In this document: piece after piece, positions 1,857-33,495 of the stretch
How the letters are laid out: each line of letters starts with the position of its first letter
How positions within the stretch are numbered: the stretch's first letter is position 1
Notes under the pieces: generated by a model
The model's input: only the letters and a program-made list of their open reading frames with translations
The model's database searches: none
What the model was told of the DNA's origin: nothing
From: a virus
Taxonomy: Duplodnaviria > Heunggongvirae > Uroviricota > Caudoviricetes
Direction: 5' to 3' (one strand)
DNA: 37,887 nucleotides
Virus record (IMG/VR): IMGVR_UViG_2875703104_000002
Position numbers and translations under genes: made by a program

Positions 1857-1935
1857 TGAAGCGGCGCACGAAAAACGCGAAAGCGTTTCACGATAAATGC
1901 GAAAACTTTAGCTTTCGCGCTTCAAATGAAACAGC
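1857..1935 (-). repeat. Mu right end (attR) with transposase-binding repeats R1-R3
   Basis: TGAAGCGGCGCACGAAAAACGCGAAAGCGTTTCACGATAAATGCGAAAAC is recognised as the Mu R-end. CGAAA-containing repeats occur twice in one orientation, and an inverted copy (GCTTTCGCG) follows. The flanking pentamer GCCGG (1852-1856) fits the Mu target consensus N-Y-(G/C)-R-N. Confidence 0.85.
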
Positions 1936-2806: not shown

Positions 2807-2920
2807 CTCACCTCCTTTGCATCAATTCGCCACTATCTTAAAAAACATCATGAGTTGAGTGTGGTTATTGGGGCATAATCGATCTGTATTACCGATCGAT
2901 TCAATTGATTCGATCGTCGT
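2807..2920 (-). promoter_or_regulatory. Pmom late promoter with C-activator dyad and Dam/OxyR control region
   Basis: On the minus strand, GTTTTTTAAGAT gives a -10 TAAGAT (plus-strand 2835-2840). The dyad TTAT-N6-ATAA lies at 2865-2878. Three GATC sites lie at 2881, 2894 and 2912. This matches the recalled organisation of the Mu mom control region. Confidence 0.8.
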
Positions 2921-2933
2921 TTTCTATATGTGT

Positions 2934-3062
2934 TCGCTACGGCTGGGTATCATTTCCGACGAGAATAAACAAAAATTAACCGAGTGGATGCTCTATGCGC
3001 AGAAGGTCGAATATACAGACACCTCCAGCCTGCCAGTAACGTTTCCCGAACAACCAGAATGA
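2934..3062 (+). pseudogene. 3' remnant (about 42 codons) of a second tail-fibre assembly gene (U'-like)
   Basis: SLRLGIISDENKQKLTEWMLYAQKVEYTDTSSLPVTFPEQPE* aligns with the C-terminus of the intact U on the opposite strand ([39 protein letters not shown]). It is convergent with U, as U' is in the Mu G segment. The upstream part of the 67-aa track ORF is merely the mom regulatory DNA. Confidence 0.8.
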
Positions 3063-3090: not shown

Positions 3091-3618
3091 TTACTCTGGT
3101 TTTTGTGGCCATTCTGGCTTTGCTGTATCCACACGGCTGACCAGAACGCTGTAGCGTTCCCAGGCTTCCAGTCGTGTGCGCTCCTCATCCGTCGCCATAT
3201 TCAGCCTGACAGCGCGTTCCAGCTGCTGGATGACTGATTCAGCTTCGGAAAGCAATGCGGCCTTTTGTAATTCGGCCTGCTGTTGCTGCTCGTCTGCCGT
3301 ATAAATCCGTTTAACCACAGCTCCGTCCTTAAACAGCCACTTTCCTGAATCGTCGGCGCGACGATTGGCGGTGATATCGGGAACTTCGACAACGCTGTAG
3401 CCTGTAGGGTCCAGTGTTGAAGCGTCTCTGGTTACGGCCACAATAATATTGTTCTCGTCGTAAAGAATTTTTATTGTGTCCGGCTGAAAGTTCTTCACTT
3501 CCTCATACCAGTTTTTTCCGTCTTCTGACCACAGCCAGGCAACATTAAAATTTTTTGTTAGCTGATATTGCTCAACGGTTTTTGGATTGCCGGCGACAAT
3601 GTTTTTTAAATGCTGCAT
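3091..3618 (-). CDS. U: Tail-fibre assembly chaperone (Mu U / Tfa family)
   Basis: 175 aa with the conserved N-terminus MQHLKNI.AGNPKT..QYQLTK and a C-terminal ...WPQKPE. It lies immediately downstream of the fibre gene. Confidence 0.9.
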
Positions 3619-3621
3619 AAA

Positions 3622-6266
3622 TTACACCTGTGACACGTTGTACCACGTTCCGTTAATTAACTTTTGTATTGGTCTGAATACTGCCGGATCGTCGCCATCA
3701 ACTTCGCCGACAATGCCAAGCCCGGTAATTACATGGCCTGATTTCTCATACATCACGCCTTTTTGCATGGTCTGAACAACACGTGTGCCAAGTCGGACAT
3801 CCCTCACGTATCGGCCATCAAAATTGCCGTAATCCGAGGGGTTAACGCGCCCCGTAATATTTACGGTTTTATTACTCTGAATGCTGCCGGAAACAAAGCG
3901 CATAACATGGACGTTATTAGCATAAACATCCAGATTACCATCACCATTTTGTTTAAAGCCCGTGTCATTATCACCCAAAACAATCGAATTACCGCCAAGA
4001 GCACTGGATGTTCCTATACCCAGAGCACCATTCAATTGACCACCAGATAACGGCAGTGCACCGACATCTCCCGCTGTAGGTTTTCGCGTTGTGGTATAAA
4101 ACTCAGACCAGTCAGCCTCGAATCCGTAACCGTCACGAGCAGAACGATAAAAAATACCACCGTTCTTATAATTAACGCGAAACTGGGCGGCGGGACAACT
4201 TCCTTCACCGATATTAAAATGAAGAATTAACGTTGATGCCCCACCAATATTTGCGTTATAGGCTCCGCTACTCCAGTTCCATCCAACGGCTTTATCATTC
4301 GCAACGGTGTCTCCTGTTTTTCCTGAAGCAAATGCACCAATATTTTTCGGCGTCAGGTTAATATCTGATGTTCCATCAAACGAAACGTTATTAATTTTAT
4401 TCCTGAAGCAAATGCACCAATATTTTTCGGCGTCAGGTTAATATCTGATGTTCCATCAAACGAAACGTTATTAATTTTACGGGCTGTTTTCAGCTTTGTT
4501 GCTGTCGCCGCATTGCCGGACAGTTCACCAGAAAGGCCAGCACTGAATGCCTGTTTCGCGCCCCATGTCTGGGCTTCGTCAATGATTGGTACTCGTCTTG
4601 TTGTGATCGTGCGGCTTCCCGGATTTCCTGAAATGCGCACCATAAAAAAGCGGTAGTTGGCTTTACTTACAGTGCTGCGCCATACATGCATTGAGCGCCC
4701 CGTACCGGAATCATCACTCGGACCAACTGCGATGTTTATCAGGTTGCCATCAATGACGCCCCAGTCCATACCGTCGGGAATATTGGTCATATTATCCAGC
4801 CGAACGGTTATCAGACTGCCCGGCACAAAATCGTAGGTCTGCCAGTCCAGACTGGATAGTTTTGCCACTGCGCCACCGATGCCCAGATTCAGGGGAAGTG
4901 AATAAGATGTGTAAACTTCCCGCCATTCGCTCCATGAGCTGCCGGTAAAAACGCGCTCAAACGTGCGACCTTTAAGGGTTGTACCTGTTCCGGCAGTTGT
5001 ATAACGCTGCCATACGTTAACACCATCAAAGCGCCTCAACACTTCCAGAATACCGAGGACTGTCACGCCGTTTCCGTCCAGTATTGGACCGTTGGTTGCT
5101 TTACCTGTAACGCTGTAAATACCTGGTGAAGTCACATCATTCAAATCCCCGTCGTAATAACGACTCTCTGACTGATGACCGACTCTTAACCACGGTTCCC
5201 ACTGTGGGTTCTCTGCATTCCATGTAGCAGAAAGGCAGCGAACATATACGTTCCCACGGCGGGTCGTATAGCGTTGCGTGCGTGAGTACCCACCACCCTC
5301 AAGAACTTCAAGGAGTCCCTGACCATAACTTCCTTCTTCCGGATAGTTGCGGTCAAATGAAGCGATAGAGCCACTACTGTTTCGCCATAAACCAAGATGC
5401 TCTGCGCCTCCTAGCGTGTTCAGGTCAATAGCTGTGCTCAGGGGGCGTGTTGCAGACTGAATCTGACGCCAGTAGCTCCACGGACCGTCTGAGCCATTCC
5501 AGGTGCCAGAAAGATTACGCATATAAACATTGCCAGTTCTGGTGGTATAACGCTGCATTCCGGAAAAATTACCGCCATTGAAGACCTCAAGAACACCGAC
5601 TGCACCGTCTTCAGGGAAATTTTTCTCCAGTGTTGCGTTGGAGGATGTGGATTTATACCAGACACCCACATAAGCCTTAACTGGACCAAATGTATTGATA
5701 TCAGCATCAACCGGCATTTCGCCGTTGTTTTTCATAAACGTCAGGCTGGTAACGCCAACATTGTCCAGAAAAGCTGATTTATCCTGGATATCTGCACCAT
5801 TCTGATTTTTCGCCAGACGTGAATTTGCGTTGTCATTTGCTGCCTTGACCGCTTTTGGCGTTGCGGCGAGTGCTTCGGATGTGCTGTTGGTAGCACTACT
5901 TAGCTGAACCAGCCCCTTTTTGCTCACGCTGGCATCATAAATACCCAGATTTTCACGTGCTGTGCGCTGTGCTGATGCCCCGGCAGTTTTTATTTCGCTG
6001 AGGTTATTTTTTATCAGCAGCGCGTTCTTGTTCATGATGGCTTTAATGGACAGTGCAAGCTGGTTTAATTTTGTTTTATCCGGTTGAATACCGGCTTCTT
6101 CCAGCGTGTTTAATAACTCCGCCTGCACAATATTAAACCAGTCCATGCCGGGCCATGTGATAACATTATTCCCGTCACCTTCTGAAAACCAGCGAACGAT
6201 AGCACTACGCTGGGCGGATACGGGCGGCATGACGGTTACGCCGCTGTCGTTATCAATATAAAACAT
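3622..6266 (-). pseudogene. S: Tail fibre S, mosaic and frameshifted by an 80-bp tandem duplication
   Basis: The first ~165 aa match the recalled Mu S constant part (MFYIDNDSGVTVMPPVSAQRSAIVRWF...). The ORF stops at 4353 after 15 out-of-frame codons. The region 4352-3622 is open in another frame and encodes a typical fibre distal end (...GNFDGRYVRDVRLGTRVVQ...INGTWYNVSQV). Removing one 80-bp copy gives a single 854-codon ORF. Confidence 0.9.
4320..4479. repeat. Perfect 80-bp head-to-tail tandem duplication inside the fibre gene
   Basis: 4320-4399 and 4400-4479 are identical at 80/80 positions by direct comparison of the printed sequence. Confidence 0.97.
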
Positions 6267-6808
6267 TAGTTATCTCCGTCATGGTAAACAAATTTATAAA
6301 TCTGATGCGCGGGTTTATATTTCTCCAGTAAACATTCCAGCGCACCCGATTCATAAACACGTAACGGCGTCAGAACATTATCCAGCACCGTTGCGTTGCG
6401 ATAATTTTTAATACCGTAAATATTGACCTGCGTAACCCACTGGCCTTCTGTGGAATCCGTCAGCCTGACGGTAAAACCGTACTGCGCAGCCAGCCATTCA
6501 TAAAAGCGCCGACTCAGATTGCCGGTCATACGCATTTTATTCGCGGCAGCCCGCTGGCGTTCGGACAGGGTGCCGTTTTCGCTTGTACAGTCCGGCAACC
6601 CCAGAAATGATTCCCACTCCCCCAGATACCAGCGGGATGTGGACGGGAAACGCTCCCGCAGCATTTGCCGCGCATCATCCGCCGCAGTGGCAATCACGTC
6701 GCTGATGGCCTGCGCCAGCGCAGATAATTTGCTGTCGGGGCTTTTATTCCAGGCAAGCCCTGACGGCAGTAATTGCAGAAAGGCCGTCTGATAGGGTGTT
6801 ACAGCCAT
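6266..6808 (-). CDS. R: Baseplate/tail protein gp48
   Basis: 180 aa, overlapping the W stop and the S start. Position and length match Mu R. Confidence 0.8.
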   Translation of the reverse strand: MAVTPYQTAFLQLLPSGLAWNKSPDSKLSALAQAISDVIATAADDARQMLRERFPSTSRWYLGEWESFLGLPDCTSENGTLSERQRAAANKMRMTGNLSRRFYEWLAAQYGFTVRLTDSTEGQWVTQVNIYGIKNYRNATVLDNVLTPLRVYESGALECLLEKYKPAHQIYKFVYHDGDN

Positions 6809-11520: not shown

Positions 11521-14007
11521 TTACCAACCTGTAATGTAGTTATCGCCCGCGTAAATATTCAGCCCCATACCATCCTCGGTGACGCGGGAACTGGTCAGAC
11601 GTAACCCCTCGCCGAGTTCGACGCGCAACGAGGCTTCCGCATTGACTTTTTGTTCCTGCGGTTCCTTATCCGTGGCCGTCCATTTCTGATACAGGTCGGT
11701 TACAAAACCGCCCAGATACTCCCCGGCGACACTGCCCAGCGTGGCACCGGCAACCGTACCCAGCGGTCCGGCAAGGCTGCCAACGGCACCGCCGAGCCAT
11801 GCACCGGCTGTACTGCCAATTGCGCCTGCTTTTTCATGGGTTGACGCCTGTTCATCCATCAGGACGGGGGCAAGCTGGAGTGCCCCCATTACCGGGCCAC
11901 CCAGACGTGACAGGGCACGACCGGCACCTTTCCCCATCCAGCCCAGCGCCCCGGCACCTTTTGTCACAACCCGACCGATCGCACTGCCTGCAAGTTTGTT
12001 TCCGATACCGGAAAACCACCCGCCAACGGCACGCCCGGCATCAGCCAGCTTTCCGACCGTTCCCGTAACCAGTTGCCCGGCAGCACTGCCTGCAAGCCTG
12101 CTCAGAAGACCGGATTTACCGGGCAAAGGCTGTGGCGCAGGGCGTGGTATTACCGGCACGCCCGGAGATGGCACGGGCTGCCTGTTTCCGGCACCGGAAA
12201 GCAGTCTGCTGACAGTACGCCCGGCATCCGCCAGCGTTCCTGCCGCTCCCGTAACCTGCTGCGCGGCAGCGCTGCCTGCCAGCTTGCCCGGAAGACCGGA
12301 TTTAGCGGGCAAAGGGCGTGGCGCGGGGCGTGGTATTACCGGCACGCCCGGAGATGGCGCGGGCTGCCTGTTTCCGGCACCGGAAAGCAGTCTGCTGACA
12401 GTACGCCCGGCATGCGCCAGCGTTCCTGCCGCTCCCGTCACCTGCTGCATGGCAGCGCTGCCTGCAAGCCTGCCCGGAAGACCGGATTTACCGGGTAAAG
12501 GTCGTGGCGCGGGGCGTGCTGCTGCCGGAACGCTGGGTGGGGGTAATGGTGCAGGCCGTGCTGTTACCGGTACGCCGGGTGGGGGTAATGCCAGTACAGG
12601 GCGTGGTGCAGGTAATGCCAGCGGCTGTGGCCCGGACAGCAATAACGGCTGGCGGGGTAACAGCGTGGGCATTCTTCCGCCGCTCCGTACGCGACGACCG
12701 CCGCCACTCCCGTAGCCACCAAATCCACGGGGCCAGTTGATGACAAACACACGCTGAATGCCGATACCCTGCAACAGCGTCTCAGACGTCATGGCATCCG
12801 GGACCGGCAGGCCTGCCTGCCCACGTTTGCGGTTTCGCATCCAGCGCCACATACGACGCCCGGTTTTAAACGGATAACTGGCAACCTGCCATGAGGGTTT
12901 TGCCACGGCCCAGCCTGCTCTCAGGGCTTTATTGGCAAGCCAGACAGACACCAGAACAGCAGCCAGTTTTTTCAGGCTGACAATATTCTGGTCAACCCAT
13001 GCCAGCGCATCTTTACCCGGTTTCAGCCAGCGCCATAATTCCTGCGCCGCGATTTTTACCGTTCTGAACGTGGTCAGAAATTTCTGACCAATGTTTTCTG
13101 CCAGTGCGTCAAGTTCCCCGGATTTATCCGCCATGTCGTGCCAGTTAAGCACCCGGCGCATCTCGTTCTTGATTTCTTCAAAGGGGCCGCTGTTTGCCAC
13201 CTTTATGCGAAATTCAAGCAGGTTGGCTTCCATCTGTGCGAACATCCCGTCCCAGGAGTTCATCGCACTGGCTTGTGCACCTTTTGACTGTTCTGACAGC
13301 GTTCTGAATACCGTCAGAATGGATTTCATGCCCAGCTTGCCCTTTGTACCCAGATCACGGATTTTTTTAACGTCCGTTCCCGTTGCATCCGCCAGCGCCT
13401 GATAAACATTGATACCGTAACCGGTCAGCAGGTTGGCATCCGCCGCCGTGATTTGCTGGCGGGCAAACATCTGTTTCAGTTGCAGTGAGGCACCCTGTGC
13501 AGTGGGTAAATCCCAGCCGTGCATGGCCCCCTGATCCTGCAACATGGTGATGAACTGTTTCGTCTGTTCATCCGTCATGCCGAAGCCTTTCGACGAACGG
13601 ATCTCATCCAGAACACCACTCAGCCCCCACGTGGTGTCCTTCGCGTTCTGCTTCGCCCAGGCCATCATAGCCTGCGCTCTGACCTTATCGCCGTGATACA
13701 GCGAGTTCATAGCGATGATCTGCTGCTCACGCTGGGCGGCTGCACCAATAAACAGTTTATTGGCGGTGTAACCCACGCCAGCGATACCCAGCGCCCCGGC
13801 TGACAGCATTCGGAATGTACGGGTTGACAGAGAACCCATTCTGTCAATTGCACCAGAAACGCGCACAACCTCCATACGCAGGGCTCGCAGGGAACTCTGC
13901 CCACTACGGGACAGGGCGTTTATCTGGCTCGAATACTGGCGGGAACGCCGGGAAAGATTGCCATTAAGATCAATAATGACAGACGCCTTTAAGCGTTTCC
14001 CGGTCAT
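11521..14007 (-). CDS. Tail tape-measure protein (gp42) with internal tandem repeats
   Basis: 828 aa located between the tail chaperone and N. It has a helical N-terminal half, a central hydrophobic segment, and a Gly/Ala/Pro-rich repetitive C-terminal half. Confidence 0.9.
11930..12481. repeat. In-frame 186-bp (62-codon) tandem repeat in the tape-measure gene
   Basis: Copies at 12110-12295 and 12296-12481 differ at about 11 positions by eye. A diverged third copy extends to about 11930. The protein unit is [58 protein letters not shown]. Confidence 0.9.
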
Positions 14008-23585: not shown

Positions 23586-25306
23586 TACCAGCCCCCTCGT
23601 TCAAACTGGTGATAATCATCAAAATCATCGTTATCAACATCATCACCACGGTGGCGTGGTGGCAGCGCCTGTATGCTGTCCTCGTCGATAACAAAACCAT
23701 TCATATAAGACGCCCTGACAGCCATACAGAGCGCCACGGCAAAGTCGCCATGTCGTCGGCCTTTACCGCCTTCATCTTTTGTGCGCCCCTTATCAATCTG
23801 CGGAATACCTTTGTCCACCTTGATGTGGAGCAGGTCATCAAGTGTGGTCTGGTGCCGGGCAATCGTGATGTTCTGCGCTTCAAACTCGCCTTTCAGTTTC
23901 GGCATCCACTCCTGATACCAGGATGCGGTCAGATTCACACAGTCGATCATCTCCGGGCCATAAATCAGACGGGCGGCTTCTGCCAGATAACCGCCGTTAC
24001 CGGTGGCATCAAATGCAGCGCCGGTAAAACGGGGCAAACGGGACAGAATGAATAAAAGGATTTGTCGCTGCTGGTCATAGGTCACATTACGCAGCTCCAC
24101 GCGGAAACATTCGCGTTTGCGTAAGTCAGGAGTGATGGCAAGCGGAACAAACACCGTAAGGTCACCACGGCGTGCAAAGTCTTCGCCCAGTACGTGTTTA
24201 TTGAGCGGCGACAGCGCATCGAGCAACGGGAGCAGCTCCTGTTCACACCAGTCCTGAACGATGCCGTGGCGCATTTGTGGTGTCAGCGATTCAAAATCGT
24301 CCGGGGCTTCAAAACGCAGAATCGGGATATCCCGCGCTGGCGTCATGGCGGCTTCAATCAGCACGCGTGACAGATAAGCGCCCCCGGATTTTTTAGGAAT
24401 GCAGCCGTATTCCTCGTCGGCACTCTCTTTATTCGGCGCATTCCGGTACAGGCCATCACGCCAGGCTTTTTCCGCTTCCGGCGACCACGGCTGATTCGTG
24501 ACGTAACAGATACGTCGGTACAACCCGTCAGCGATGGCATCATCCAGCGTGATGCGGTGAACGCTGTAATCCTTGCGCCCCTCGCGCGCATCCTGAATGT
24601 ACTGGTTAAACAGGTTATCGACGCCGTTATGTGTCGATATGATCCGCACGCGGGCACCCCACATGGTGAGAGCAAAAGCCGCTTTCAGCAGTTCGTCCAG
24701 GGCTTCATGAAATGCCGCCTCATCAATCACCACGTCCCCCTGCAAACCACGCAGGTTAGACGGACGGCTTGACAGCGCCTGCACCTTAAATCCGCTGTTA
24801 GGGAAACGGATCATATAAGTGAGGATTTCTTCTTTTTTGTCGCTGTCCCAGAAGGTCTGCTCCCATACGTCAGCCTTTGCCAGTTGGTTAAAGGCGCGGG
24901 CAAACAGGGCACAGGCGGCAATGTATTCCAGCGCCATTTCCTGACGGGAACCCACATAAAAAACGTTGCGACCGCCACGGCGACGCGGCTTTGCTGCCGT
25001 CATGACATTGCGGCCCGCTTCGGCCCATGTCAGACCGGTACGACGGGATTTTTCAGCAATACAAATCTGGCTTTCATCCTCAAACCAGCGGCGCTGATAG
25101 CCCAGAAAAACCGGTTCATTAGATGGCTGGGCGTTAGTGATGTCTGTAACGATCTCGACACCAAGTTTGGTTGCTTCTTCCTGAAGATCAATCTGACGGG
25201 GTTCACTTGACGGAATCAGTTTTTTGCCCCGGCTATTTTTTTCATACCCCATTATTTTTTCAGCCATAATACTTCGGTTTTCTTTAAATACCTGAGGGAA
25301 CGTCAT
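23585..25306 (-). CDS. Terminase large subunit gp28
   Basis: 573-aa ORF. The Walker-like/nuclease organisation and the position upstream of the portal fit TerL. The start is ambiguous (ATG at 25306 or at 25267, MAEKIMGYEK...), and neither has a strong SD. Confidence 0.88.
   Translation of the reverse strand: MTFPQVFKENRSIMAEKIMGYEKNSRGKKLIPSSEPRQIDLQEEATKLGVEIVTDITNAQPSNEPVFLGYQRRWFEDESQICIAEKSRRTGLTWAEAGRNVMTAAKPRRRGGRNVFYVGSRQEMALEYIAACALFARAFNQLAKADVWEQTFWDSDKKEEILTYMIRFPNSGFKVQALSSRPSNLRGLQGDVVIDEAAFHEALDELLKAAFALTMWGARVRIISTHNGVDNLFNQYIQDAREGRKDYSVHRITLDDAIADGLYRRICYVTNQPWSPEAEKAWRDGLYRNAPNKESADEEYGCIPKKSGGAYLSRVLIEAAMTPARDIPILRFEAPDDFESLTPQMRHGIVQDWCEQELLPLLDALSPLNKHVLGEDFARRGDLTVFVPLAITPDLRKRECFRVELRNVTYDQQRQILLFILSRLPRFTGAAFDATGNGGYLAEAARLIYGPEMIDCVNLTASWYQEWMPKLKGEFEAQNITIARHQTTLDDLLHIKVDKGIPQIDKGRTKDEGGKGRRHGDFAVALCMAVRASYMNGFVIDEDSIQALPPRHRGDDVDNDDFDDYHQFERGGW
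25241..25299 (+). promoter_or_regulatory. Candidate sigma70 promoter and SD for the opposite-strand orphan ORF
   Basis: TTCATA (25241-25246), an 18-nt spacer, then CATAAT (25265-25270). GAGGGA (25294-25299) lies 5 nt before the ATG at 25305. These signals sit inside the 5' end of the terminase ORF. Confidence 0.4.
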
Positions 25307-25793
25307 GTCACCAAAAGCAATAAAACTACTTGAAATATTTTGTGAAACAGAATTAAAGCAATCTATGGATACTGTTCAATTTGTCTCAATAAACGGATGG
25401 GAAACACTTCAGCGCCTTTGGCCCCTGAATGAACGATTCACACCACGCATAGAGCAAATCAGAACGATTAGCTACAGAAAGCAATTTGAAAAAGCCGCAG
25501 ATAACGCCATTGAGGATTTTCTGATGAAGGATGATGACTGGTCAGAAATTCCATTAGTTGTCTGGCGTGTTCTTCTGGAACGCCATAATCAAGCAACGAT
25601 TCTCTGCGTAACTAATGCACTCGCCAATAACACCGAACTTATGCACATCCCTGTCGGACTTTCTCAGTCGGCACAAACAAAATTTGCAGTAGCTTATTTG
25701 TATTACGCAATGAAGCTCCCATATAAAGTGCTCGGTGAATCACAGCTTGACATTGAATCACCGTTTGAGTATCTGAACACCCGGCTACAGTAA
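25305..25793 (+). CDS. Orphan 162-aa hypothetical protein on the opposite strand (moron between the terminase genes)
   Basis: A 489-nt ORF fills an AT-rich insert. Its first 60 nt are 27% GC, against 57% for 25861-25920. It has an SD and a downstream hairpin with a T-run. I see no TM segment and recognise no motif. Confidence 0.65.
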   Translation: MSPKAIKLLEIFCETELKQSMDTVQFVSINGWETLQRLWPLNERFTPRIEQIRTISYRKQFEKAADNAIEDFLMKDDDWSEIPLVVWRVLLERHNQATILCVTNALANNTELMHIPVGLSQSAQTKFAVAYLYYAMKLPYKVLGESQLDIESPFEYLNTRLQ

Positions 25794-25806
25794 AAGCCTT
25801 TCGATG

Positions 25807-25839
25807 GGCGCTGATTAGCAGCGCCTTGTAATCATTTTT
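25807..25839 (+). terminator. Orientation-specific terminator after the orphan ORF
   Basis: GGCGCTG-ATTAG-CAGCGCC is followed by TTGTAATCATTTTT on the plus strand. No T-run follows it on the minus (late-operon) strand. Confidence 0.5.
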
Positions 25840-25852
25840 CATAACGTAACTC

Positions 25853-26443
25853 CTACGCTTTACCCAGCAACACATCACGGATACGCTGCTCCAGTTCTTC
25901 GCTGATACCATCCTGCCCGCGCAGTTCTTCACTGACGGCGTTTGCCGCTTCTTCTGCGAATGCCTGGCGGATTTCTTTCTCGCGCCGGTGGCTGGACATT
26001 GCCGTGGATTCCAGACGCTGTGCCGCCAGCATGGCATTTTTCAGCAGGTCAATATCCACGTCAGATTCCGGGTTTTCGATTTGCCGCATCATGGCCTTAA
26101 AAAGCTGGCTGCGGGCCATTTCCAGAATCAGCTTTGTGGTTTCTCCCATTGGCTTGTCGCCAAGTTCTGCGGTCAGTGCTGACGTCATTTCACGCATCTG
26201 TCGCAGGTTATGGCCTACCTGTTCGACGTTCGTCGCGTAACGGTTCAGACCGGAACGGGAGAGTTTCATCTCATCCGGCAGGCCAGCGTCTTCAATCAGT
26301 GCGTTAATTTCTTCCAGAATGCGGGCCTGTGGGATCGCTTTATCACGCAGCATTTCATGCAGCGTTTTACGTACGTTTTCTGGCAGTAAATCCACTTTTG
26401 AAGCCCGGCCCCGTGTTTTCCTGTCCATCACGCCTCCTGTCAT
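25853..26443 (-). CDS. Terminase small subunit-like protein gp27
   Basis: 196 aa with a basic N-terminus (DRKTRGRASKVDLLPENVRK). Position matches Mu gp27. Confidence 0.8.
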   Translation of the reverse strand: MTGGVMDRKTRGRASKVDLLPENVRKTLHEMLRDKAIPQARILEEINALIEDAGLPDEMKLSRSGLNRYATNVEQVGHNLRQMREMTSALTAELGDKPMGETTKLILEMARSQLFKAMMRQIENPESDVDIDLLKNAMLAAQRLESTAMSSHRREKEIRQAFAEEAANAVSEELRGQDGISEELEQRIRDVLLGKA

Positions 26444-27518: not shown

Positions 27519-27765
27519 GATGTTCTGTCTCATCTGCCAGCCGTGCGGCACGATTTGCGGCACGGATAGCGGAAAATACCTGCATCGTCTGTTCCTGACC
27601 GTGTAACAACCATTCAGCCGTGTTGCGGGCCTGTTGCGCCGTCTGTAATTCACGGCGCAGCGTCTGGTTATCGTGGCGGGTGCTGTCCAGCCTGTGCCAC
27701 AACACCCCGGACAGAACGGCGGCAAACACGGCTGCCAGCAGTAAACTTTTACTGGCGAAGGTCAT
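27379..27765 (-). CDS. Inner-membrane spanin (i-spanin, Rz-like) gp23
   Basis: 128 aa with an N-terminal TM followed by a charged coiled-coil. It lies directly after the endolysin. Confidence 0.8.
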   Translation of the reverse strand: MTFASKSLLLAAVFAAVLSGVLWHRLDSTRHDNQTLRRELQTAQQARNTAEWLLHGQEQTMQVFSAIRAANRAARLADETEHHDAKEKITTAITGDNCSTRPVPAVAADRLRELEKRTRAIGGDPARN

Positions 27766-28267
27766 CCGCCCCCCTGATATTCCAGATAGCCATTTCCACT
27801 TCGCGACGGTTCATCAGTCCTTTCCATTTATGGCCTGCGGCAAACACCCAGCGGGCCATCTGGTCACGCGCTCCGGCATAATCACCGGCATTGAGTTTTT
27901 TCAGCAGCGTTGATTTACTGAATGCGGTAACACCGGTGTTGAAAATAAACGTTGCCAGCGCTGTTTTCTGATATGGCGTCAGCGGCACCCTGACAAGACG
28001 ATCGATTGCCGCATAAACCGGTTTTAAATCACTGTCGAGGAGAGCCATACACTCCGCATGGCTGTAACGGCGCATTTCGATATCCGGCCCGGTATGTCCC
28101 ACACAGACCGTAAGCACACCGGCAATATCGCGGTAAGGCATATAAGCGATATTTTCCAGATGGATCAGAGACTGACGGGTCATTTCCTGATAACCACCCA
28201 CACCGCCACCGGCAATCGTTGCCGCCAGCAGTGCGGCTTTCAGTTTTTTTGGTATCCCCGCCATCAT
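27749..28267 (-). CDS. lys: SAR endolysin (GH24 lysozyme) gp22
   Basis: 172 aa. A weakly hydrophobic Gly/Ala-rich N-terminal signal-anchor (LKAALLAATIAGGGVGG) is followed by an E...D...T lysozyme-type core. Confidence 0.9.
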   Translation of the reverse strand: MMAGIPKKLKAALLAATIAGGGVGGYQEMTRQSLIHLENIAYMPYRDIAGVLTVCVGHTGPDIEMRRYSHAECMALLDSDLKPVYAAIDRLVRVPLTPYQKTALATFIFNTGVTAFSKSTLLKKLNAGDYAGARDQMARWVFAAGHKWKGLMNRREVEMAIWNIRGADDLRQ

Positions 28268-33205: not shown

Positions 33206-33225
33206 TGTCAGCGTTCCTTTGCGAA

Positions 33226-33495
33226 TTAATGTTTAACCGCATTCACCGGATGTGGTACTAAATCACATTCAGCCTCCATACCCACTTTCTTCATAGTGGT
33301 CAGCATCTCATCTTTGGCCTTTTTAATAATTTCAGGAGCCATAGTCAGGACGATATTTGCCAGTAAATCATGAGGCCCGGTATTTTCCGTTGGCGAGATA
33401 TCTGCAAGACATGCTTTTGCATCCAGAACTTCTCTGCGCCCATTGCAACCTTCACTACTTTCCAGCCATGTAAACTCAAAGATAACTTTTGCCAT
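33226..33495 (-). CDS. Early-region hypothetical protein (89 aa)
   Basis: ORF with AAGGAGACGC before the ATG. Confidence 0.65.
   Translation of the reverse strand: MAKVIFEFTWLESSEGCNGRREVLDAKACLADISPTENTGPHDLLANIVLTMAPEIIKKAKDEMLTTMKKVGMEAECDLVPHPVNAVKH

Follow-up and report, generated by a model that had tools for sequence, protein, structure and literature searches.

A 37,887-nucleotide (nt) stretch of DNA, the IMG/VR record IMGVR_UViG_2875703104_000002 (hereafter the window), was identified as a Mu-like prophage in Escherichia coli sequence type 1193 (ST1193), deposited in GenBank as CP035330.1 (GCA_004116855.1). Its tail-fibre gene carries a perfect 80-bp tandem duplication that shifts the reading frame and is predicted to remove the receptor-binding tip of the fibre. 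Sequence comparison, checked by script, shows that the segments at window positions 4320-4399 and 4400-4479 agree at 80/80 positions and follow one another head to tail with no spacer. Tandem Repeats Finder (TRF) reports the array with a period of 80, 2.0 copies, 100% matches and a score of 320. The identity between the copies breaks off exactly at either boundary (T at 4319 vs. A at 4399; T at 4400 vs. C at 4480). No microhomology is present at either duplication endpoint, the only nearby similarity being an offset 'TT'. A boundary-independent pattern describing the two-copy arrangement gave one match in the window and none in 100 shuffles. At the DNA level, the two-copy junction reads ...ATTAATTTTA followed directly by TTCCTGAAGC..., given also as ...ACGTTATTAATTTTA followed by TTCCTGAAGCAAATG...; the stretch across it is GCUUCAGGAAUAAAAUUAAUAACG, and the predicted junction peptide is ...FASGIKINNVSFDG....

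The fibre gene is read on the minus strand. Its open reading frame (ORF) runs from 6266 to 4353 and encodes 637 amino acids (aa), ending in ...NIGAFASG and then in junk residues IKLITFRLMEHQILT before the stop at 4353-4355. Residues 597-622 (KINNVSFDGTSDINLTPKNIGAFASG), which the duplicated unit encodes, form a conserved fibre box located just ahead of the distal domain. Since 80 equals 27 × 3 − 1, translation comes out of copy 1 shifted to the −1 frame and ends 15 codons on. Removal of one copy in silico yields a 2565-nt ORF (854 codons and the stop) that reads ...GAFASGKTGDTVANDKAVGWNW... across the join; this restored gene and its product are referred to below as collapsed. A many-copy unit of 1-7 nt, as in a simple-sequence-repeat contingency locus, was not found in the fibre gene, where TRF finds only the 80-bp × 2 array. 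The lesion shows the features of a frameshift duplication, namely adjacent direct copies of a unit that is single in relatives, a length that is not a multiple of three, a premature stop and the loss of the distal domain. An earlier sequence-only reading of the window had described the 80/80 head-to-tail identity, which is confirmed by comparison, TRF and script. It had also described the truncated ORF from 6266 with its 15 junk codons and stop at 4353-4355, which stands, and the 2565-nt ORF from 6266 to 3622 after collapse, which was reproduced exactly together with its translated junction. Its assignment to a tail-fibre gene frameshifted by duplication agrees with the ORF reading and with the domain and PDB matches given below. 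The features of the locus are collected in Table 1.

Table 1. Coordinates of the duplicated copies, the interrupted fibre gene and neighbouring features in the window.
Feature	Position	Strand	Description
Copy 1 (reading direction)	4400..4479	-	Native frame; encodes (R)KINNVSFDGTSDINLTPKNIGAFASG, residues 597-622
Copy 2 (reading direction)	4320..4399	-	Out-of-frame entry; junk IKLITFRLMEHQILT; premature TGA at 4353-4355
Truncated fibre ORF	4353..6266	-	637 aa (622 native + 15 junk); RefSeq WP_250188905.1
Stranded distal coding part	3622..4320	-	Carries codons 623-854 and the stop codon of the collapsed frame; homologue of the distal domain of Mu S/S' (receptor-binding, chaperone-dependent)
Tail fibre assembly chaperone (Caudo_TAP; Mu U / P2 GpG type)	3091..3618	-	Intact; downstream of the fibre gene
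Mu gp48-type baseplate/tail protein	6266..6808	-	Directly upstream of the fibre gene; intact; 100% identical to L003
U' remnant (alternative chaperone)	2922..3059	+	C-terminal 46 codons
gin 3'-end remnant	2889-2936		~48 nt, just upstream of the U' remnant, by alignment to L003
Mu-type right prophage end	1857..1906	.	TGAAGCGGCGCACGAAAAACGCGAAAGCG... (TGAAGCGGCGCACGAAAAACGC...), which we take to be a Mu end; abuts host DNA beside emrD

The domain composition of the fibre indicates what the frameshift takes away. The truncated product retains the Mu S constant N-terminus (aa 1-173), a Phage_fiber_2 repeat (aa 113-154) and a central 'pyocin knob' region. In the collapsed protein, residues 1-173 match the constant part of Mu S (PDB 5yvq, 8ju3), and this match ends at the Mu Sc/Sv boundary, that is, at the gix crossover ('IQNLGLQE'). 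Farther along, the distal domain of Mu S'/S (PDB 8ju3, 5yvq) aligns with residues 615-711 and 779-852. Judging from the sequence, the baseplate-proximal two-thirds of the fibre are kept and the 232-residue receptor-binding, chaperone-dependent tip is gone from the product. The distal frame has no ATG, GTG or TTG until a TTG at 4035, from which only the last 137 aa would be made. Because no start codon lies ahead of this TTG, separate synthesis of the tip is impossible, and the possibility of an independently translated distal domain was rejected.

The part of the fibre beyond its Mu-like N-terminus corresponds to the GpH/GpG module of the isolated Peduovirus vB_EcoM-569R9. The GpH of this phage is 95.7% identical to aa 111-854 of the collapsed protein, the two sequences show no difference within the 80-bp unit or over 30 nt to either side of it, and there, too, the fibre gene is directly followed by that of the chaperone. 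In vB_EcoM-569R9, however, the unit occurs once and GpH is intact at 911 aa, whereas the window has the module grafted on a Mu S N-terminus and frameshifted. As a separate observation, the 80-bp box marks a mosaic boundary where proximal and distal fibre modules meet. The megablast homology of two other E. coli prophage fibre classes stops at the box edges: one class matches only window 4121-4340, and matches to the other begin only at 4470-4486.

The state of the gene in relatives was examined next to that in the source record. Adding 525,899 to a window coordinate gives the CP035330.1 coordinate, which places the repeat at 530,219-530,378. The CP035330.1 record (L004) is identical to the window across 12,266 nt, both repeat copies included; thus, the duplication belongs to the deposited assembly and was not created by window extraction. 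The assembly is listed as a Brazilian ST1193 clinical isolate in one paper, which gives no sequencing details; no literature on the accession CP035330 was found. Two Mu-like prophages, in E. coli 1290 and S6, share the gin-less architecture with a P2 fibre; in both, the fibre gene is uninterrupted and measures exactly 2565 nt. Their insertions lie at two other chromosomal sites, in ydcO (1290) and beside ydcV (S6), which indicates that the lineage spreads with a one-copy gene. The collapsed gene of the window equals these genes in length, and it aligns colinearly with the undisturbed 2565-nt genes of L001 and L005, each of which contains the unit a single time (nt 1788-1867) between identical flanks. 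For L001, the nucleotide identity to the collapsed window allele is 91%. The unit is single-copy in L006 too.

Wider searches gave the same picture. These DNA scans relied on exact matches and covered complete or representative genomes and assembled contigs. In complete E. coli genomes, the top 40 matches and the repeat-spanning matches in a spread sample of 60 are all exactly 80 bp shorter than the query, and so are the phage matches. A junction-centred megablast found the contiguous two-copy junction in none of 5,426 complete E. coli genomes, 190 of which contain the unit once. Searches for the junction 30-mer in the GTDB species representatives, IMG/VR and the JGI metagenomes were negative. 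Furthermore, the boundary-independent pattern found no core duplication of any 65-95 bp period in the GTDB representatives, IMG/VR and the JGI metagenomes; the 33 IMG/VR contigs that carry the box core do so once each. At the protein level, an exact-protein look-up placed the truncated 637-aa product on one contig only, although its power is low on short-k assemblies, which would break at an 80-bp repeat. The junk tail IKLITFRLMEHQILT occurs in no other protein found. As far as these sequences go, one genome alone has the two-copy allele, and nothing suggests that the box tends to duplicate.

Some other fibre products from Logan/ENA assemblies (P0001, P0002 and P0004) are also short. They break at the A5 runs CCGAAAAATATT and GGAAAAACAGG, in or beside the 80-bp box (window ~4315-4350). 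These short products were rejected as examples of the same lesion, since they result from frameshifts at the two A5 runs of the box in other assemblies. Such frameshifts are probably homopolymer sequencing errors and unrelated to the duplication.

In phage Mu, the fibre gene is switched by inversion of the G segment through the recombinase Gin, and both orientations of the segment are functional. The window shares with this system the gene affected, fibre S, whose constant N-terminus matches Mu S 1-173 and shows at least 86% protein identity to related Mu-type S genes. In contrast, the window has no gin, no S'v arm and no inverted crossover sites. A tblastn search with the Gin of L003, a related prophage of E. 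coli FDAARGOS_1058, gave no match in the window. Alignment to L003 reveals that most of gin, S'v and most of U' have been deleted. Two alternative fibre C-terminal arms in inverted orientation were not found, as the opposite strand of the window holds only the 46-codon U' remnant. This remnant points to descent from an ancestor with a G segment. The scar left by the deletion (window 2889-3059) has the same architecture in the E. coli 1290 and S6 prophages; therefore, the loss of the G segment is older than the strain of the window. An origin of the duplication at the old Gin crossover was considered and rejected. The Mu S homology stops at ~aa 173, the gix position, and the duplication covers aa 597-622, about 425 codons downstream, and is thus unrelated to inversion.

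Apart from the fibre gene, the prophage appears complete within the limits of the window, which stops inside the c repressor gene and leaves the left prophage end outside. The hallmarks of Mu-like phages (MuA transposase, MuB, Ner, c repressor, Mor/C, Mu-type head and tail genes, Com/Mom) are full-length at 96-100% protein identity to L003. Indeed, for each annotated gene of L003 the window has an uninterrupted, full-length equivalent (96-100% protein identity), and the three exceptions are all accounted for: there is no Gin, the fibre is a mosaic, and one small early gene has been swapped for a cassette with intact ORFs. Two further candidates for lesions were dismissed, since the 'missing' gene hyp9 is a cassette replacement with intact ORFs and an extra 620 bp between terS and terL disrupts nothing. 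The sequence-only reading had proposed that Gin switching has been lost and that the fibre gene carries the only obvious lesion of the prophage. Both proposals are borne out, the former by the negative tblastn search and by the sole presence of the U' and ~48-nt gin remnants, and the latter by the full length of all other genes relative to the related prophage.

Several accessory differences were noted along the prophage. At window 33221-33475, the L003 gene hyp9 is replaced by unrelated sequence with intact small ORFs of ~76 and 89 aa, one of which has a CxxC...CxxC spacing, in what amounts to a module swap. At 25238-25855, a low-GC insert of ~620 bp (35-45% vs. ~55% around it) separates the genes for the terminase large subunit and terS/DUF3486, which are adjacent in L003 and lack the insert there. 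Its 162-aa ORF (25305-25793, opposite strand) has no Pfam or PHROGs match and only a non-significant PADLOC match, and megablast of the insert against the 5,426 complete E. coli genomes gives 0 matches. The insert has the look of an orphan accessory ('moron') gene. The tape measure gene (11521-14007, minus strand) contains an in-frame 186-bp tandem repeat at 12031-12518 with 2.6 copies and 91% matches. With this repeat, the tape measure protein of the window reaches 828 aa; the L003 protein has 690 aa, and those of L001 and L005 have 814 aa each. Because the length of the tape measure sets that of the tail, tail length may be variable within this prophage lineage. The lysozyme gene is annotated as frameshifted in the FDAARGOS_1058 prophage (L003 27390-27906) and forms an intact 172-aa ORF in the window (27749-28267), so that relatives have private lesions of their own. 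Finally, across the repeat region the window is 98.6% identical to the fibre gene of a resident P2-like prophage, found in E. coli EcPF40 (L007; NZ_CP054214.1 16693-19422) and, ~18.4 kb from the record start, in many uropathogenic E. coli genomes. If present in the source strain, such a P2-like prophage could mend the fibre lesion by gene conversion or provide fibres in trans.

The fibre gene of this gin-less Mu-like prophage, a late gene with a P2-type fibre module, thus probably carries a real, recent and strain-private 80-bp tandem duplication of spontaneous origin. A commonplace knock-out of recent date is the most likely reading of the lesion, in preference to a genetic switch. It falls into a known class, the tandem-duplication frameshift in a prophage gene, of which it is a further instance with no new mechanism. 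Like the ordinary duplication frameshifts seen in pseudogenization and prophage decay, it is perfect, lies within an ORF, has a length that is not a multiple of three, creates a premature stop, is derived with respect to single-copy relatives and is private. It differs from them in that its endpoints lack the usual flanking short direct repeats. Several observations speak for a young event. The prophage–host junction has no other occurrence among the 5,426 complete E. coli genomes; the insertion site is private although ST1193 is a recent clone, which argues that the prophage was recently acquired and that the lesion arose not long ago. Two copies without a single difference fit such an age. 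As infection by a Mu-like phage needs a working fibre, we infer that the duplication arose either after lysogenization or in the burst that yielded the infecting particle. In the latter case, fibres encoded by sibling genomes could have complemented that particle.

Regarding formation, microhomology-guided slippage was rejected as the origin because neither boundary has microhomology, and inverted repeats or hairpins that might have promoted the duplication amount to only weak 9-13-nt imperfect pairs. The two copies may instead have been formed by illegitimate, microhomology-independent joining, for example by misjoining between sister duplexes. Once the duplication is in place, a ribosome would enter copy 2 out of frame and stop after 15 codons, the tip would be lost and the particles would be fibre-defective. 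Precise collapse by replication slippage or sister-strand exchange would in turn give rise to rare one-copy, wild-type revertants in cultures and lysates. A close experimental parallel is offered by the 101-bp tandem repeats in tetA studied in E. coli by the Lovett laboratory, which undergo high-frequency, RecA-independent deletion (PMC8378479). As in the window, these are perfect tandem repeats of about 100 bp in E. coli, deleted precisely via template switching, and their behaviour predicts one-copy revertants at the 80-bp repeat. In contrast, the tetA repeats are plasmid-borne and under selection, whereas the 80-bp repeat is chromosomal and lies in a prophage. Plasmid-borne 101-bp repeats probably collapse at ~1e-5 to 1e-4 per cell, although the literature searched gave no numeric rate for repeats of ~100 bp. 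At plausible neutral collapse rates, the range of which is assumed, the two-copy allele would be short-lived and would not persist. Reversibility would then be a by-product generic to such repeats and not an evolved switch.

Other explanations were weighed against this one. The genome may in fact have one copy, the second 80-bp copy having been made in a long-read consensus, in hybrid assembly or in polishing. This would suit an allele found in a single assembly and nowhere else in the collections searched, a junction that is blunt and without microhomology, and an assembly method for which no describing paper was found. However, comparison with relatives shows no frameshift in ~50 other genes of the 37.9-kb window, which suggests that the local assembly is well polished, whereas homopolymer frameshifts in the same box occur in other, poorer assemblies. 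A new junction in otherwise unique DNA is also an atypical assembler error, and short-read graphs cannot yield a junction k-mer that is absent from the reads. In addition, the genome passed RefSeq annotation, as its product has a WP_ accession. An artefact of this kind is considered improbable. Alternatively, a real duplication might be leaky. The junction creates the sequence A_AAA_U (GGA AUA AAA UUA), on which a −1 slip of tRNA-Lys would restore the frame, leaving the phage attenuated and not dead. The shift required is indeed −1, the AAA codon two codons past the junction can re-pair perfectly one base back, and the resulting full-length fibre would contain a 27-residue in-frame insertion (I plus a second KINNVSFDGTSDINLTPKNIGAFASG), that is, an exact repeat of the conserved fibre box. 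Yet the junction offers an A_AAA quadruplet only and no canonical X_XXY_YYZ heptamer, and no significant structure lies downstream (minimum free energy −16.6 kcal/mol, z = −0.76); programmed −1 frameshifting was rejected on both grounds. An AGGA stands only 2-3 nt upstream, a spacing that favours +1 over −1 shifting by the rule known from prfB and dnaX. No known RNA element was detected in the whole window by an Rfam scan at gathering thresholds. Moreover, single-site slips usually occur at ~1% or less, and a trimeric fibre may not tolerate a 27-aa insertion. Leaky expression through such a slip is hardly credible.

The sequence-only reading had speculated that the locus is a reversible OFF state of the fibre. 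In its strongest form, this idea implies a selected ON/OFF switch by gain and loss of the duplication, which would replace the lost Gin inversion by phase variation of the cap3A type. Perfect repeats of similar size do collapse precisely at appreciable rates (PMC8378479), the phage is indeed without Gin, and a precedent exists in the type 3 capsule gene cap3A of pneumococci, where a duplication within the ORF turns expression OFF and precise loss of one copy turns it ON (PMC11163986, citing Waite et al. 2001). The duplications in cap3A, however, are recurrent and their reversion has been observed experimentally, whereas here there is one allele in one genome and no recurrence in more than 220 homologous loci. 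The likeness to the OFF state of cap3A is physical only, and trivially so. Neither this duplication nor a core duplication of 65-95-bp period exists among the 190 E. coli genomes and 33 viral contigs with the unit, and in sister prophages of this gin-less lineage the gene has a single copy of the unit. The OFF direction needs a rare illegitimate event with no guiding microhomology, so that forward switching would be far slower than reversion. As a late gene, the fibre has no effect during lysogeny. The G segment works in both of its states, whereas turning the fibre OFF only costs the phage something and brings it nothing plausible in return. A selected switch is accordingly regarded as very unlikely. 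The same holds for the related notion of bet-hedging through duplication after the loss of Gin, with host range or infectivity at stake. The two-copy allele would then serve as an OFF state that is inherited yet unstable; most cells would harbour a non-infectious prophage, and precise collapse or low-level −1 slippage would free a small infectious fraction. The chances of this are equally slim. With relatives showing no such or similar duplication, the OFF-state speculation finds no support. The evidence favours the alternative offered alongside it, a recent inactivating mutation or an assembly artefact.

Some points nevertheless count against a recent, strain-private knock-out. The two-copy state is attested by one consensus assembly (CP035330.1) only. 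As the searches covered complete genomes, species representatives and assembled contigs, close clonal relatives with the allele could exist unseen among draft E. coli genomes or raw reads. A blunt junction without microhomology is atypical for slippage-made duplications in E. coli. Induced particles would be fibre-defective and non-infectious, a loss of function predicted from domain homology.

The lesion reveals no new mechanism; it bears on the remaining ability of the prophage to spread. Its significance is chiefly practical, as it calls for a correction in annotation, since the RefSeq label of WP_250188905.1 is that of an ordinary 'pyocin knob domain-containing protein' and the product is actually a truncated fibre. 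The prophage represents a clean natural case of a young and perfectly reversible lesion in an otherwise intact transposable prophage of the pandemic ST1193 clone. If the duplication is confirmed by reads, the strain could act as a natural reporter in which precise collapse of the repeat is read out through plaque formation.

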